Shown: piece by piece, positions 50,769 through 58,635 of the stretch
How the letters are laid out: each line of letters starts with the position of its first letter
How positions within the stretch are numbered: the first letter of the stretch is position 1
Assembly (NCBI GenBank): GCA_024225275.1
Contig: JAAEMS010000279.1
Coordinates: 31,662-95,661 of the forward strand
DNA: 64,000 nucleotides
Reading direction: 5' to 3'
Source: Actinomycetes bacterium
GTDB lineage: Bacteria > Actinomycetota > Acidimicrobiia > Acidimicrobiales > JAAEMS01
Notes under the pieces: generated by a model
Told to the model about the DNA's origin: nothing
Databases searched by the model: none
Seen by the model: only the letters and a program-made list of their open reading frames with translations
Made by a program: the position numbers and the translations under genes

Positions 50769-50913
50769 GCAGCCATGTACTTCCAGCCGGTGTTCTCGGC
50801 ACCCGTCGACCCATGATCACGGGTTCCTGCGGGCCTGATCCGTTCGGCCCATCTATGTCTCAGAGGGTCATTCCGGCCCGCATTTTCGCCGACTTCAAGT
50901 ATTGGAAGGTGAG

Positions 50914-53900
50914 ATGTCACACCAATCGAACAAGTGGGACAGCCGGCCCGTATTCGCGGGCGCGGTGCGGGCCTTCGTCCTCGTCGCGCCCATTCTCTTC
51001 GCCATCATCGCGGTGCTTGTCCTGGGCCGGGCGATACCTCGCCCGCCAGGACTCGTGCCCACGGTCCTCTGGTGGATCGGCCTCACCATGGTATCCACCC
51101 TCGTGTTGTGGTCGATCGACAAGCTCCTCCGCCGCCTCCTGCCCGTCGTAGCCCTGTTCAAGCTCTCCCTGGCCTTCCCCGATCACGCCCCATCGCGGTT
51201 CAAGACCGCCATCCGCTCCGGCACCGTCCGACAACTGGAACGGCAGGTGGCCTCGGGGCAGCTGTCGCGCGCTACACCCCAGGAGGCGGCCGAACAGCTC
51301 ATTGCCCTGGCCGCCACTCTCAACGAGCACGACCGCCTGACCCGCGGGCACACCGAACGGGTGAGGGCCTACTCGGCGATGATCGGCGAGGAAATGGGGC
51401 TCGACGAGACGGAGCTCGAGTTCCTGAACTGGTCAGGGCTCGTGCACGACATCGGCAAGCTGAGCGTGCCATCCGAAATTCTCAACAAACCGGGCAAGCT
51501 CGACGAGGCGGAGTGGGCCATCCTGCGCGAGCATCCGGCCCACGCCGACGTCCTCATCGAACCCCTGCGGCCGTGGTTGGGCGAATGGGCCGAGTCGGCC
51601 ACCCAGCATCACGAGCGATTCGACGGCGCCGGGTACCCGAACGGCCTGTCCGGCTATGAGATCTCCCGGGCCGGGCGGATCGTGGCGGTGGCCGACGCCT
51701 ACGACGTGATGACGTCGGTCCGCTCCTACAAGAAGGCGACGACCGCCACCGAAGCCCGCCGCGAGCTGGCCCGCCACGCCGGCGACCAGTTCGACCCGGA
51801 GGTGGTCCGCGCCTTCCTGAACGTCGCCATTGGCCGGCTCCGGCTGGTGATGGGCCCGCTCTCGTCATTGGTCCAGTTCCCGGCTGGTAGTGCCTCGCTC
51901 GGTTCGGCGGCCGCGACGACCGCGGGAGCGGCGGCCAGTGTGGCCGTCGCAGCCCTGGTCGGGGTGCCCGCGGCCGAGCCGGCCGAGCCGGCCCCCCCGG
52001 CCCCCGACGCAGTGGCGTTCGTCGCCGCCGACGCCCCCGATCTTGTCATCGACGGGATGGAGGATCAGGTGCTCTCGGTTGATATCGGGACCGAATCCCC
52101 CCTCGCGATTCGGTCGCTCACCATCATCGAGGAGTCCAGATACGGCGTCGCAACCGTCGACGGCGACGTCATCCGGTTCACTCCGAATCCGGACACCAAC
52201 GGGGTCACGTCACTCACCTACAAGGCGTGCTTCAGCGACGACACCTGCGACGAAGGCACGCTCACCCTGGCCCTCACCCCGGTCAACGACGCCCCCCGAC
52301 CCGTCGATGACACGGCAACCGTGGCCGAAGACGAGTCGGTAACGGTCAACGTGTTGGCCAACGACCTGGATGTCGACGGGGGTGAACTCCGGGTCACCGA
52401 CTTCACCGTCAGCTGGCCCGATCACGAGCCCTCCGAGCTCGGGGTCGAGCTGGCACCCGGCGGACTCACCATCACCCCGGCTCCGGATCAGTGGGGTCAC
52501 GCCAGAATCGTCTACGAGGTGACCGAACCCGACGGCCTGACCGACGAAGCGACCGTTCGGGTCGAGGTGACCCCGGTCAACGACAGCCCCGAGGCCGCCA
52601 ACGACGTTGCCGTGGTGATCGAGAACCGGGCGACCACTATCGATGTGCTGGCCAACGACACCGATATCGACGACGACGCGCTGAGCATCGTGTCGATCAG
52701 CTCCCTTGCGGGCGGCACCGCCACCATCGTTGGAGACCAGGTCCGTTTCACCCCCTTCACCCGGTACGTGGGTGAGGGCAGTTTCCGCTATACCGCCAGC
52801 GACGGAAACGGGGGCATCTCGACCGCGGAGGCCGCGCTCGAGATCGTTCCCGTGGGGACCCTGCCCGCCCTGGTCGACGACGTGGCCGGCGCTTTCGAGG
52901 ACACCCCGACCACCATCGATGTCCTGGCCAACGACAGCTCGATCGACGCAACGGTGGATCCGGCAACCCTGCGCATCGACCAGCCGCCCACGGCCGGCGC
53001 CACCTCGGTCGTCGATGGTGTCGTTCGCTACACGCCGGGCGCCGACTGGTCGGGCTCCGACTCGTTCGACTACCTCGCCTGCGACACCAACGACTACTGC
53101 GGAACGGCCACCGTGACGGTGACCGTGACCGCGGTCAATGACGCTCCCAGCTTCGGGGCCGGAGCCGACCAGACCGTTCCCGAGGATCACGCCCCGGTGA
53201 CCGTGGCCGGCTGGGCCTCGGGGCTCACGGTCGACCCGACCGACGAATCCACCCAGACCGCAGTGTTCGTCGTGACGACCGTCGACCCCAGCCTGTTCAG
53301 CTCCCAGCCCGCCATCGACCCGGCCGGCACCCTCACCTACTCCCTGGCCGCCGACGCCAACGGCACGACAACCGCCTCAGTGACCATGGTCGACGACGGG
53401 GGTACCGCGAACGGCGGGTCCGACACGAGCCCGGCCCACACTCTCTCCTTCACCATCCTGCCCAGCAACGATGCCCCCAGCTTCGGGGCCGGAGCCGACC
53501 AGACGGTTGCCGAAGACAGCGGCCCGACGGTGGTGCCCGGCTGGGCCACCGGAATCAGCCCCGGCCCGGCCGACGAATCCGGACAGGCCACCGTCTTCGG
53601 ATCGGTCACTGCCGGTCCAGGCCTGTTCACGGTCACCCCGGCCGTCGCGCCAGACGGCACCCTGAGTTTCACCCCCGCGCCCGACGCCAACGGCACCACG
53701 ACGGTGACGGTGAGTGTCCAGGACGATGGGGGCACTGAGAACGCCGGCATCGATACCAGCCCCAACCACACCCTGACGGTGACGATCACCGCGTCGAATG
53801 ACGCACCGGTGGCCAACGACGACGCGGGAGCCGGGTACTCGACCAGCGAGGACACCGCCCTCATCACCCCCGACGTCACCACCAACGACACCGATGTCGA

Positions 53901-56361
53901 TGACCCGATCGATCCTGGGTCCGTGGTGCTGATGGCCAACGGCACCAACGGCACCGCGGTGAGCAATGGTGACGGCAGCTTCACCTACACCCCTGACCCC
54001 AACTGGTCGGGCACCGACACCTTCACCTACACCATCACCGACCCCGAACCCCTCACCTCCAACCAGGCCACCATCACCGTGGTGGTCAGCCCGGTCAACG
54101 ACGCTCCCGTCGTCACCAACCCGGAAGCCCAGACCGCCGATGCCGGACTTGGCTTCAACCTCCAGATCATGGCGACGGATATCGAGTTCGACGACTTGTC
54201 CTACGGCGCAGCCGGTCTCCCTGCCGGCTTGAGCATCAGCGGCACCGGGCTCATCTCCGGGACGACAGACCCCGGAGCGGTTGGGATCCACTCGGTCGAC
54301 GTCACCGTGACCGATGACGGCACCCCGAATGAGGCCACGATCATGAACTTCGTCATCGACGTGGCTCCCCACACAGCCTCGACCCACGCCGGGTCGATCG
54401 TGATCAACGAAGTCCTCCACAAACAGGCCGGCAATCCGCTCGAGGAGTTCGTGGAGCTGTACAACGCCGGAGGTAGCGCCGTCGATCTCACCGGGTGGAC
54501 ACTGGCCGACGCCAATCTCAAGGTCGACGGGATGAGCAGCCTGAACTACACCGTCCCGGCCACCGACCACTGGGGCACCACTTCGGTACTCCAGCCCGGC
54601 GAGTACGCCGTGATCTGGTTGGTGTACGACGGCGCCACCCTACCGCCCGTGACCAATCCGGCTTCCGGCCTCGAGTTCGTGGTCAATGATCCCGCCGAGA
54701 AACTCGGCGCCAGCGGTGACGTGCTCTGGCTACTCGACACACCGTCCACCATCGTCGACCACGTCGCCTACGGCGTGACCGCCGGCATGACCGGTCCGGC
54801 CTCAGCCCTCGGCCTGTGGAACGACAGCGCCCAGCTGTCGCTGAACACCGCACCAGGGCAGTCGATCTCCCTGAGCCCCAACGGAGTCGACGGCAACACC
54901 AGCGCCTGTTGGGAGAGAACCGGTAGCGGTGACGCCGCCGGACGCTGCCCGGGCGCCCTGGCAACCTACGACTCCGACTCCATCGGAGGTCTGAGAACCA
55001 GTGTTGCCCTCTACAACAACTCTGCCGGGGCCGACGCCGGCGGGCCCTACGCCATCGCCGAGGGGGATGGCCTCGTGCTCAACGGTTCCGGGGCCGCGGG
55101 CACCCCTATCGAGTGGCATTGGGACCTCGACAACGATGGGCAGTACGACGACGCATCGGGCATGAACCCATCACTGTCGTGGGCCACCCTCGCGAGCCTG
55201 GGCATCGACGACGACGGTGTGTACCCGATCGCCCTGGAGGTCGACGACGGCACCGGACGATCCACCACCACCGTCACGGTCACCAACGTGGCCCCCGCTC
55301 TCAGTACAAGTGGCACCTCGACCGCGAGTACCGCAGCTCCCTATTCACTGAATCTGGGAGCAGTGGATCCCGGAGCCGACACCATCGCCAGCTGGACCAT
55401 CAACTGGGGCGACGGCACGATCGACACGATCCCCGGCAACCCCGCCACCGCGACACACACATACAGTTCGCCGGGCTTCACCTTCGACATTCTTGCTTCC
55501 GCAACCGACGAAGACGGAACCTACTTCCGCAACGAACTGCTGGTCCCCAGCTACGACGGCGACACGGTCTTCCGTTTCGCAGCGGAGACCGGTGCCTTCT
55601 CCGAGGTATTCGCCACGGCGGACGACCCCACGGAGGGAATCATCGGACCCGACGGCCGACTGTATGTGAGCGGCGATCTCTCGAGCAACGTCTTGCGCTA
55701 CAACGCAACCACAGGCGCATACATCGACGAGTTCGTCACCGCCGGTGAAGGCGGACTCAACAGCGCAGAAGGGATGGCCTTTGGACCTGACGGCCACCTA
55801 TACGTCGGGGACTGGAGCTCGGACCGTGTCCTGCGTTTCGACGGAACCACCGGTGCGTTCATCGACATCTTCGCCGACAGCGGGATCAGGCAACCCTACG
55901 ATCTCATCTTCGGCCCGGATTCCAATCTCTACGTGGGCAACTACAACAACCATTCAATAGTTCGACTCGATGGAACTTCGGGGGCCTTGGTCGACACTTT
56001 TGTGGGCGCCGGCAGTGGCGGCCTCAACAAACCAGAACAGATGACCTTCGGACCTGATGGGAACCTGTACGTCGCCAGCTTCAATTCGGGAGAGGTGCTT
56101 CGCTACAACGGTACGACCGGTGCCTTCATCGATGTGTTCATAGCTGCCGGCGGCGTTGCCGACCTCGACAAGGCATCCGGCTTGGCCTTCGGGCCCGACG
56201 GCCATCTCTATGTCGGGGACCACGTCGACCATATGATCCTGCGGTTCCACGGCGACACAGGGGCATTCCTCGGCGAATACGTCACGATGGCGGCGGGCGG
56301 GCTGTCCCGGCCCCACCTCATGACATTCCTGCCCGACCAGCAGGTCACTGTCACGGGCTGA
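50914..56361 (+). CDS. Membrane HD-GYP phosphodiesterase fused to Ig/cadherin-like repeats, lamin-tail, PKD and beta-propeller domains
   Basis: Two TM; HTERV, HDIGK, HHERFDGAGYP, AVADAYD, RSYK; hydrophobic segment; six (V/S)ND(A/S)P repeats; INEV..EFVELYN..DLTGW; WGDG; GPD(G) repeats. Alternative TTG start at 50902. Confidence 0.85.
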   Translation: MSHQSNKWDSRPVFAGAVRAFVLVAPILFAIIAVLVLGRAIPRPPGLVPTVLWWIGLTMVSTLVLWSIDKLLRRLLPVVALFKLSLAFPDHAPSRFKTAIRSGTVRQLERQVASGQLSRATPQEAAEQLIALAATLNEHDRLTRGHTERVRAYSAMIGEEMGLDETELEFLNWSGLVHDIGKLSVPSEILNKPGKLDEAEWAILREHPAHADVLIEPLRPWLGEWAESATQHHERFDGAGYPNGLSGYEISRAGRIVAVADAYDVMTSVRSYKKATTATEARRELARHAGDQFDPEVVRAFLNVAIGRLRLVMGPLSSLVQFPAGSASLGSAAATTAGAAASVAVAALVGVPAAEPAEPAPPAPDAVAFVAADAPDLVIDGMEDQVLSVDIGTESPLAIRSLTIIEESRYGVATVDGDVIRFTPNPDTNGVTSLTYKACFSDDTCDEGTLTLALTPVNDAPRPVDDTATVAEDESVTVNVLANDLDVDGGELRVTDFTVSWPDHEPSELGVELAPGGLTITPAPDQWGHARIVYEVTEPDGLTDEATVRVEVTPVNDSPEAANDVAVVIENRATTIDVLANDTDIDDDALSIVSISSLAGGTATIVGDQVRFTPFTRYVGEGSFRYTASDGNGGISTAEAALEIVPVGTLPALVDDVAGAFEDTPTTIDVLANDSSIDATVDPATLRIDQPPTAGATSVVDGVVRYTPGADWSGSDSFDYLACDTNDYCGTATVTVTVTAVNDAPSFGAGADQTVPEDHAPVTVAGWASGLTVDPTDESTQTAVFVVTTVDPSLFSSQPAIDPAGTLTYSLAADANGTTTASVTMVDDGGTANGGSDTSPAHTLSFTILPSNDAPSFGAGADQTVAEDSGPTVVPGWATGISPGPADESGQATVFGSVTAGPGLFTVTPAVAPDGTLSFTPAPDANGTTTVTVSVQDDGGTENAGIDTSPNHTLTVTITASNDAPVANDDAGAGYSTSEDTALITPDVTTNDTDVDDPIDPGSVVLMANGTNGTAVSNGDGSFTYTPDPNWSGTDTFTYTITDPEPLTSNQATITVVVSPVNDAPVVTNPEAQTADAGLGFNLQIMATDIEFDDLSYGAAGLPAGLSISGTGLISGTTDPGAVGIHSVDVTVTDDGTPNEATIMNFVIDVAPHTASTHAGSIVINEVLHKQAGNPLEEFVELYNAGGSAVDLTGWTLADANLKVDGMSSLNYTVPATDHWGTTSVLQPGEYAVIWLVYDGATLPPVTNPASGLEFVVNDPAEKLGASGDVLWLLDTPSTIVDHVAYGVTAGMTGPASALGLWNDSAQLSLNTAPGQSISLSPNGVDGNTSACWERTGSGDAAGRCPGALATYDSDSIGGLRTSVALYNNSAGADAGGPYAIAEGDGLVLNGSGAAGTPIEWHWDLDNDGQYDDASGMNPSLSWATLASLGIDDDGVYPIALEVDDGTGRSTTTVTVTNVAPALSTSGTSTASTAAPYSLNLGAVDPGADTIASWTINWGDGTIDTIPGNPATATHTYSSPGFTFDILASATDEDGTYFRNELLVPSYDGDTVFRFAAETGAFSEVFATADDPTEGIIGPDGRLYVSGDLSSNVLRYNATTGAYIDEFVTAGEGGLNSAEGMAFGPDGHLYVGDWSSDRVLRFDGTTGAFIDIFADSGIRQPYDLIFGPDSNLYVGNYNNHSIVRLDGTSGALVDTFVGAGSGGLNKPEQMTFGPDGNLYVASFNSGEVLRYNGTTGAFIDVFIAAGGVADLDKASGLAFGPDGHLYVGDHVDHMILRFHGDTGAFLGEYVTMAAGGLSRPHLMTFLPDQQVTVTG

Positions 56362-57493: not shown

Positions 57494-58563
57494 CTACTCG
57501 GCCCACTTCTCCCGCAGGATCGGCTTGGTGATCTTGCCCACCGGGTTCCGGGGCAGGGCCTCGATGATCTCGATGGGTTCGGGAAGTTTGTAGCTGCCCA
57601 CCTCGAGCTCTCGGAGGTCGGAGTCGGGATACCCGACCACCCCACACTCGGCCACCGCTTCGTGGCTCGAGACGAGACCCTCGACCTCGGCGGCCGGGAT
57701 GTTCATACCTCCCCGGATCACGATGTCCTTGGCCCGATCTACGAATCGCATGAGCGCCGGGGGAACACTCCCGTCGTCGATCCACTCGAACAGATCGCCG
57801 GTTCGGTAGTAGCCCTGCTCGTCGAATTCCTCGCCCGCCGACTCGAGGTAGCCATCGAACCCAGTGTCCCGGCGAACCGCAGCTCACCCAGTGTCCCGGC
57901 CTCGGTGATCTCGGCACCGGAGTCGAGGTCGACCAGTCGGGTCTTCACCCCGGAGCGGTCGGGCCGGGGGAAGTGCCGGGCCCGATCGGAGGGGTCGGGC
58001 ACCATCGCCATGGTCGAGAGCATGGCGGCCCCTTCGTTGGAGCCGAACCCGTTGACGATCTCGATCCCTCTGGCCTGCCAGCCCTCGACCATCCACGGAG
58101 CGAGAGGGGCCGAACCCGACGAGATCATGCGCACGGCGGAGAGATCGACGCTCTCGAGCATGGCCTCGTTGGCCTGGAGCATGTTGAGAAGAGGAGGTGG
58201 GGCGACGGTGTGGGTGATGCCTTCGGTGCTCATCTGTTGCAGGAAGACCGGCAGGTCCAGGGGCTGGTGCAGACGGTGGATGGTACCGGCCAGAACCCAT
58301 GGCACCAGCACCCCGCCGATGCCCGCACATTGACCACCGGAAACGGACAAAAGATGCGATCGGCACTGTCGAGGGAGAGCTGATCGACCTGGAATTCGGC
58401 CGAGTCCATGGCGAAGCTCGTGGCCCCGATACTGGATCGGGAAGGGTACGATCACGGCCCCCAGACGGGCGCAGGCCAGGATGGCGAGCACCGGCTCGAC
58501 CATGTTGGGCATCGGGGCGGCGACACCGATTCCGGGACCGGCTCCGAGCTCGGCCAGGGCCAA
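57494..58563 (-). pseudogene. Acyl-CoA synthetase (AMP-binding) remnant
   Basis: Fragments RLGAVIVP, SGSAPL, NGFGSNEG, TGDL, DRAKDIVIRGG, LPRNPVGKI in several frames; far shorter than the family; boundaries approximate. Confidence 0.75.
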
Positions 58564-58635
58564 ATGGTCGGCACGCTCGCCGCTCGCGGCGGCAACCGCC
58601 TGGCGATGGTCAGTGGTGCTGAGATGAGGTTGCCC

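Follow-up and report, generated by a model that had tools for sequence, protein, structure and literature searches.

An HD-GYP phosphodiesterase head fused to a giant adhesin-type arm: a candidate receptor-type enzyme from a large family in Actinomycetota

Can one protein chain hold a cyclic di-GMP (c-di-GMP) hydrolase inside the cell and an adhesin-like arm outside it, and could contact at the arm then set the level of the second messenger? The question is raised by one gene in the 64,000-nucleotide stretch of an Actinomycetes bacterium genome that was analysed here (the window). Its predicted product of 1,815 amino acids (aa) begins with two transmembrane (TM) helices and an HD-GYP domain, and continues into an arm of adhesin-type modules that ends in a predicted beta-propeller. 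The analysis supports this architecture and makes the corresponding topology probable; signalling by the arm is treated below as a proposal.

The first-pass annotation of the locus reported one unbroken frame of about 1,815 residues, and this is what the DNA contains. A single open frame runs on the + strand without interruption from 50902 (TTG) or 50914 (ATG) to 56361. The ATG at 50914 is the likely start of the gene. A Shine-Dalgarno-like GGAAGGTGAG lies directly 5' of it, and the database copy, P0002, is an identical protein of 1,815 aa. The GC content at the third codon position stays between 0.70 and 0.93 in frame over the entire open reading frame, and shows no break at the junction of enzyme and arm at 51850-52050. 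Residue numbers of the TM helices and of the enzyme are counted from this ATG, while the hydrophobic peaks follow the numbering of P0001.

The main argument for a real fusion is drawn from homologous sequences. A search with the first 400 residues against proteins of 1,000-3,184 aa gave 370 matches in 8,000 scored candidates. Both HD_5 and Big_9 are present in all 120 of the matches listed, one of which is the window's own protein, so the fused homologs to which the first-pass annotation looked for confirmation are abundant. The named relatives belong to Ilumatobacteraceae, Microthrixaceae, Acidimicrobiales, Gaiellales, and Baekduia. The closest heads among species genomes are 58-66% identical and come from metagenome-assembled genomes (MAGs) of Acidimicrobiia and Acidimicrobiales. 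In the probable source sample, one 19-kb contig is identical across 51400-52600. Another sample from the same study covers the junction, a region marked early on for a coverage check, with two overlapping contigs (51472-51995 and 51976-52574) that differ by substitutions only and have zero indels. The contig support is modest because the runs come from one study. Since all 120 listed relatives carry the same fusion and the second-sample contigs cover the junction, the fusion is not an assembly artefact, and there is hardly any doubt that both the gene and the fusion are real.

The enzyme had been described as an HD-GYP domain with a complete motif set, and every metal ligand and the GYP motif are present. 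Pfam HD_5 matches with an E value of 2.2e-36, and the translation places HD at nucleotide 51445 and HHERFDGAGYP at 51607-51639, exactly where they had been located before. Conservation was read from two alignments, the first with 18 heads taken from species genomes and the second with 82 sequences. The metal ligands H146, H178-D179, H207, H232-H233, and D261 are invariant in both, as are G240, Y241, P242, and the Glu of HHE, and the pattern HH[EQ]..GYP occurs in 121/121 proteins. The best sequence matches in the PDB are V-cGAP3 (3.9e-36), PmGH (1.5e-33), PA4781 (1.6e-27), and the DvhD chains (4.2e-20). The AlphaFold2 model of the head has a mean predicted local distance difference test score (pLDDT) of 81, with values above 90 across the enzyme. 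Its top fold match is PA4781, with a template modelling score of 0.74 on the target, and DvhD chains are also among the fold matches.

The metal class and the substrate can be predicted from motifs. In the survey text of Galperin and Chou (bioRxiv 10.1101/2021.11.05.467447), a Glu at PmGH position 185 binds the third metal and its absence defines the binuclear class, while the trinuclear class is the one reported to be capable of the second step from pGpG to GMP. The same text states that RxY[K/R] confers c-di-GMP specificity, that RxxQ or RxxN shifts it to cyclic GMP-AMP (cGAMP), and that the KPG motif binds the second guanine. In the window's protein a Leu is aligned to PmGH E185, and this column is variable and non-acidic in the 18 heads, which places the domain outside the trinuclear class. 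The sequences NKPG and RSYK fall on the corresponding motifs of PmGH. In the 82 sequences R270 and Y272 never vary, and K273 is conserved to at least 90%. Due to the Leu at the E185 position, RSYK, and NKPG, a binuclear, c-di-GMP-specific phosphodiesterase is predicted. Catalysis is argued for because every metal ligand is invariant across the family, and the domain is probably an active c-di-GMP hydrolase. The source genome (99% estimated completeness) contains 25 GGDEF, 16 EAL, and 2 PilZ matches and zero SMODS matches, and the substrate is therefore made in this cell. The first-pass annotation allowed for either c-di-GMP or cGAMP. The RxYK and KPG motifs and the 25 GGDEF matches point to the c-di-GMP type, and the absence of SMODS makes cGAMP the less likely substrate.

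The enzyme is embedded in a longer conserved head. Four of its parts are conserved in both alignments: W..RP before the first TM helix (TM1), RRLLP...FPD.APSR after the second (TM2), the HD-GYP motifs, and a helix with LN.S.GRLR..GP. The W..RP motif is invariant or nearly so. All three HD_5 matches of the source genome carry this head. The other two genes (C224:12332-14302 and C238:13013-15379; open frames of 656 and 788 aa) encode the same order of two TM helices, HD-GYP domain, and hydrophobic segment, followed by shorter Big_9-like arms, and a long stalk rich in Thr, Ser, and Pro is found in the C238 copy. Since none of the three HD-GYP genes is of another type, the family represents the entire HD-GYP complement of the organism.

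The N-terminal module (residues 1-135), nearly all of which lies upstream of the HD-GYP core, was also searched alone against 1.84 billion cluster representatives (clusters at 50% identity). With a cut-off of E<=1e-3 it retrieves 1,464 representatives, and with E<=1e-10 still 914; almost all of the best 150 match at their N-terminus. Fifty representatives, each of at least 434 aa, were sampled, and in 49 of them the module leads straight into HD or HD_5. In the C-terminal part, 24 of these 50 have Big_9 or cadherin domains, 3 have a different domain (pentapeptide, LTD, and Laminin_G_3), and 23 have no assigned domain. Among 401 sampled genomes of the phylum, 29 (28 if the unpublished G148 is set aside) have the head matched from its N-terminus, at 38 places in total with open frames of 316 to 1,840 aa; the other matches in the 401 genomes cover the HD-GYP core only. 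Tandem same-strand pairs of head-family members occur at G109:C148:32984-37415 and G160:C1:40850-44285, and are paralog arrays in two other genomes. The tips of the arms also vary, with NHL in 4, LTD in 5, and PF13517 in 6 of the 120 listed relatives. One ortholog, P0005, is collinear and lacks the He_PIG-LTD block, and its PKD-PKD-NHL tip is kept at 66% identity. The idea of a conserved head with a variable ectodomain thus holds for the tips of the relatives, for the genome sample, and for the module search. As judged from sequence, the protein is a member of a large family that is confined to Actinomycetota and for which no published description was found.

Pfam confirms the arm composition first proposed, namely Ig/cadherin-like repeats, an Ig domain with GLPAGLSI, a lamin-tail domain, PKD domains, and a propeller with GPD repeats, and it raises the number of Big_9 repeats to seven. 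Big_9 (PF17963) matches at 1.1e-80 in 7 stretches, and the tandem-95 model NF012211 matches at 4e-82 in 6 stretches, above its cut-off. In the segment-wise Pfam scan, five of the seven Big_9 repeats are clear and two are weak. The E values of the domains lie well outside the range expected by chance. A weak CshA_repeat match is also seen in the arm. There are five GPD[GS] repeats, and the six [VS]ND[AS]P motifs are at residues 461, 559, 745, 855, 965, and 1065. Over 110 aa (53149-53808), Big_9 repeats 5 and 6 share 59% identity, and both start with NDAPSFGAGADQTV, while the identity of the other repeats is 27-46%; the pair looks like a recent internal duplication. Against PDB sequences, the tip matches the TRIM71 NHL domain (5.9e-14) and the PknD sensor 1RWI (1e-10), whereas the middle of the arm, from He_PIG to PKD, has zero matches at E<=0.01. 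The C-terminus of the protein is without a recognisable anchor. This copy is intact and combines He_PIG, LTD, two PKD domains, and NHL. The coordinates of all features are collected in Table 1.

Table 1. Features of the HD-GYP/arm gene and its product, in window coordinates (KD, Kyte-Doolittle hydrophobicity; AF2, AlphaFold2)
Feature	Position	Strand	Basis
Whole gene, 1,815 aa + stop	50914..56361	+	Open frame, coding signal; identical database protein P0002
Shine-Dalgarno-like GGAAGGTGAG	50904..50913	+	Adjoins ATG start; read from sequence
TM helix 1, residues 12-40; conserved W..RP motif before it	50947..51033	+	KD 2.96; AF2 helix, pLDDT 96-97; W8 and P26 conserved
TM helix 2, residues 47-73	51052..51132	+	KD 1.87; AF2 helix, pLDDT ~97
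Family-specific juxtamembrane linker RRLLP...FPD.APSR..., probably cytoplasmic	51133..51315	+	R74, P77, F88, P89, P93, R95 invariant in 18 and 82 sequences
HD-GYP domain (Pfam HD_5): H, HD, H, HH, D, GYP, KPG, RxYK present; no Glu at PmGH E185 position	51316..51804	+	Pfam, PDB alignment, head alignments, fold match
Conserved positively charged helix (LN.S.GRLR...) after HD-GYP	51829..51873	+	Alignment, AF2
Third hydrophobic segment, candidate third TM helix or signal anchor; Ala/Val/Gly/Thr-rich, weak	51907..51966	+	KD 1.78; position conserved and uncharged in 120/120; AF2 low-pLDDT helix
Seven Big_9/cadherin-like repeats, six bounded by [VS]ND[AS]P	51997..54108	+	Pfam, NCBIfam, motif scan, repeat comparison
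He_PIG putative Ig domain (GLPAGLSI)	54109..54381	+	Pfam 5.2e-11
Lamin-tail domain (LTD)	54382..54801	+	Pfam 1.9e-18
75-aa stretch without family match; Cys pair 1336/1349	54802..55026	+	Segment scan
Two PKD domains	55027..55536	+	Pfam segment scan
Predicted NHL-repeat beta-propeller at tip	55537..56358	+	Pfam NHL 3.1e-14; PDB TRIM71 NHL, PknD 1RWI

The position of the arm relative to the membrane depends on the third hydrophobic segment. Hydrophobicity peaks at residues 24-42 (KD 2.96), 51-69 (1.87), and 337-355 (1.78) in P0001 numbering; counted from the ATG, the third peak covers residues 333-351, and it corresponds to the Ala/Val-rich segment at about 51890-51965 that had been pointed out before. 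An uncharged run after the HD-GYP domain is kept in 120/120 proteins, with a minimum, median, and maximum length of 26, 44, and 72 residues. In 116/120 proteins, no 19-mer C-terminal to the enzyme is more hydrophobic than the third segment, and across the 120 the flanks of this segment are basic upstream (1.91 K+R vs 0.24 D+E) and acidic downstream. The Cys count of the arm is even in 101 of 105 Cys-bearing proteins, compared with 30 of 92 heads, and 253 of 262 consecutive arm Cys pairs are not more than 20 residues apart. The window's protein has three close Cys pairs in its arm and zero Cys in its head. Its arm contains 204 D+E and 34 K+R. Big_9, cadherin-like, and the other Pfam families of the arm are typical of bacterial surface or extracellular proteins. 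The uncharged segment, the Cys parity, the acidic arm, and the domain types together give indirect support to an external arm, and this location is quite likely.

The explanation that we prefer is a receptor-type, self-contained c-di-GMP phosphodiesterase of a monoderm actinobacterium, the monoderm host being inferred from relatives named as Acidimicrobiia. A cytoplasmic, binuclear HD-GYP domain would be clamped to the membrane at both ends, by the TM hairpin and linker on one side and by the weak third segment on the other. The third segment would carry the remaining chain out of the cell, where a stalk of about 1,450 residues, acidic and held by disulfides, would pass through the wall and present the NHL propeller at its end. 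Engagement of a ligand, a surface, or a neighbour cell by the tip or stalk may alter the clustering or geometry of the HD-GYP heads. The altered heads would then change c-di-GMP hydrolysis, with pGpG as the probable product, and the signal would pass from outside to inside. Actinobacterial Ser/Thr receptor kinases have the order enzyme, TM helix, sensor, and outside-in control is favoured because the order proposed here is the same. PknD is such a kinase, with one TM helix and an extracellular NHL propeller, and it shares with the window's protein the proposed order of parts and the kind of tip (1RWI; NHL propeller match 1e-10). The two differ in that the output here is a phosphodiesterase rather than a kinase, that an N-terminal TM hairpin is added, and that the membrane and the propeller would be separated by a stalk exceeding 1,100 residues. 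As a whole, this explanation is held tentatively, at slightly less than an even chance, and the same guarded estimate applies to its central step, that the state of the arm may regulate the enzyme.

Several observations weigh against this outside-in explanation. Between the third segment and the HD-GYP domain, a transmitter of the HAMP or S-helix type is absent. The charge pattern expected around the third segment, positive before and not positive after, is found in 88/120 proteins and not in all. On a Hessa-type insertion scale with approximate values, and with the sum for the window's protein made by hand, the third segment scores about +3.7 (median +2.9, n=120), while TM1 scores -0.36 and TM2 0.02. 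For six post-kinase TM helices of the same genome, the scores on this scale lie between -7.4 and -0.5 and the KD values are 2.3-3.7, compared with 1.78 for the segment. In the AlphaFold2 model the segment is a helix with a pLDDT of 43-52 and is not packed against TM1 and TM2. The 120 proteins and the other relatives are kin, and counts across them overstate their independence. A look for expression found none, as one sequencing run of the source sample that was guessed to be RNA yielded nothing for the gene. Finally, the head appears able to exist without a sensor, because members of 404-411 aa (L018:1453-2670 and L019:291-1475) consist of the head and about 60 residues past the hydrophobic segment, with practically no arm.

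As to the third TM helix that the first-pass annotation called for, a hydrophobic segment is present at a conserved position, and with its weak KD value and low pLDDT it is a candidate for spanning the membrane. The AlphaFold2 model leaves the topology unsettled because the third segment lacks confident placement, and the topology remains inferred because the segment is much less hydrophobic than the receptor-kinase TM helices of the same genome. Because a marginal, small-residue-rich third helix lies next to a strong hairpin, it may be retained in the membrane with the help of TM1 and TM2. The same weak hydrophobicity and low model confidence would fit a segment that does not span at all, so that the entire C-terminal part is cytoplasmic. 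This is most improbable: even Cys counts and close Cys pairs are restricted to the arm, the domain types are generally extracellular in bacteria, one paralog has a Thr/Ser/Pro-rich stalk, and the uncharged run is kept in all 120 proteins. Another possibility is that the weak segment is a cleaved internal signal peptide, with the head as an export pro-module and the arm released or bound to the wall. Its low hydrophobicity and Ala-rich core are nearer to a signal-peptide core than to the TM anchors of this genome, and a small-residue stretch, VPAAE, follows it. By eye, however, no conserved Ala-x-Ala-type site is found past the segment in close orthologs, which mostly have G-[LIV]-x and then a Pro-rich sequence, and the strict fusion to an enzyme would be hard to explain. 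Such processing is very improbable, if slightly less so than a cytoplasmic arm.

The missing transmitter module and the head-only members bear on a further alternative, in which the protein is a tethered adhesin or cell-cell cohesin. Its head would be an anchor that places a constitutive phosphodiesterase at contact sites and lowers c-di-GMP locally, with no allostery. The adhesin-type modules of the arm (Big_9, cadherin-like, and the weak CshA_repeat) and its strongly acidic character are in line with this role. In contrast, the C-terminal parts are swapped as in sensor families (Big_9, LTD, Laminin_G_3, pentapeptide, and unassigned), and the tip is of a kind that serves as a receptor-kinase sensor. 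Tethering without regulation is judged to be rather unlikely. It differs from the outside-in receptor solely in allostery.

The direction of control may also be reversed. The occupancy or turnover of c-di-GMP at the head would then set the conformation, exposure, or shedding of the arm, similar to LapD or DvhD but within one chain. DvhD's HD-GYP domain is a c-di-GMP-driven conformational switch for adhesin control, according to the part of PMC13090378 consulted, and DvhD chains are among both the sequence and the fold matches given above. The same part of that source describes DvhD as degenerate, with SQ for HD and MN for HH, as not hydrolysing c-di-GMP, and as acting with a separate protease and adhesins. 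DvhD thus lost its metal ligands and its hydrolysis, whereas all ligands are invariant across the present family. LapG/DvhG-type proteases and separate adhesins with type I secretion genes are absent among the window neighbours and 9 related loci. DvhD/DvhG/DvhA and LapD/LapG/LapA also tie a c-di-GMP-binding membrane protein (with an HD-GYP domain in DvhD) to a giant repeat adhesin. They do so in diderms, with separate proteins, a non-catalytic domain, a periplasmic protease, and type I secretion, while the window's protein has one chain, an intact site, and no partner genes. It therefore has neither the degenerate domain nor the adjacent protease and separate adhesin or type I secretion that mark LapD/DvhD-type systems, and control from the inside is improbable.

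The early description of a single-protein system agrees with the surroundings of the gene in the window and in the 9 related loci, where no Lap-type partner genes are nearby. Genes for a TetR regulator, a glyoxalase-family protein, and an acyl-CoA dehydrogenase lie upstream on the opposite strand, and an amidohydrolase gene lies downstream. No protease, secretion, or sortase genes were seen near the gene. At the 9 related loci the gene is flanked by unrelated housekeeping genes that show no conservation, except for a pyruvate dehydrogenase E1 gene common to two loci. Because no neighbourhood is conserved, the gene stands alone and has no partner genes to lean on. Further downstream in the window, 57494-58600 contains short open reading frames only, and 57494-57751 (-) encodes a fragment of an AMP-binding enzyme C-terminal domain, which may be a gene remnant. 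In one Acidimicrobiales MAG, a heliorhodopsin gene (L026:10851-11660; Pfam 5e-99) is directly downstream of a homolog of 1,627 aa. The source genome also has a second giant membrane signalling protein, a 1,834-aa open frame at C77:1442-6943 (-) with a Pkinase match and one strong TM helix. This kinase was considered as a possible sharer of the arm and was rejected by eye, since it consists of a regulatory N-terminal part, the kinase, an NTPase-like part, one TM helix, and a repeat-rich tail.

Characterised HD-GYP proteins resemble the window's protein in the enzyme and differ from it in the remaining layout. PA4781 (4R8Z, binuclear), V-cGAP3 (5Z7C), and PmGH (4MCW, trinuclear) share the catalytic domain with all metal and substrate motifs, and PA4781 and V-cGAP3 likewise lack the Glu for the third metal. 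These three are soluble and have N-terminal REC, GAF, or other domains, whereas the present protein is proposed to be clamped to the membrane at both ends and has its 1,450-aa arm after the enzyme. In the text of the survey by Galperin and Chou (10.1101/2021.11.05.467447), the HD-GYP domain is typically C-terminal and preceded by N-terminal sensors; dCache, PBPb, and CHASE2 are given as outside sensors and MASE9-12 as membrane forms, and no HD-GYP protein with an outside sensor is given as characterised. The dCache-, PBPb-, and CHASE2-HD-GYP proteins and the MASE9-12 forms, as described there, are likewise membrane HD-GYP proteins whose activity is possibly set from outside. In contrast to the dCache, PBPb, and CHASE2 receptors of that text, the proposed sensor here comes after the enzyme, is a giant adhesin-type array instead of a small-ligand pocket, and is connected with no HAMP or S-helix. 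Neither 'Actinobacteria' nor 'Acidimicrobi' occurs in the running text of the survey. HdgA and HdgB of Streptomyces are 6TM-HD-GYP proteins without an arm, according to the consulted part of PMC6205966. The first-pass annotation knew of no characterised protein with this architecture, and a full-text literature search agrees, as it found, judged by titles, the first lines of abstracts, and selected passages, no published account of an HD-GYP domain with an adhesin arm, although the supplementary Pfam tables of PMC8846402 may list the combination.

What the present analysis adds consists of the search with the module alone, the Cys-parity test, the calibration of the third segment against TM helices of the same genome, the reading of the substrate motifs, and the observation that three of three HD-GYP genes are of this type. 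A more far-reaching proposal concerns the family, which comprises about 900-1,500 clusters and is restricted to Actinomycetota. Its members, with the window's protein as the founding example, may be single-chain contact receptors, in which the arm would gate the phosphodiesterase by clustering of, or pulling on, a marginal third helix that needs the hairpin. This generalisation is doubtful at present, though far from implausible. To our knowledge, the only systems known to convert contact with a surface or a cell into a change in c-di-GMP consist of several proteins and come from a few Proteobacteria. The simplest possible wiring for such a response would be one chain that has an adhesin-like arm outside the cell and a hydrolase within it. 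Acidimicrobiia and related Actinomycetota abound in water and soil, and we know of hardly any study of c-di-GMP signalling in them. If the proposal is true, adhesion and the turnover of the second messenger would form a single molecular event in these bacteria, and the layout with the output first and the sensor last, otherwise known from receptor kinases, would extend to a c-di-GMP phosphodiesterase.

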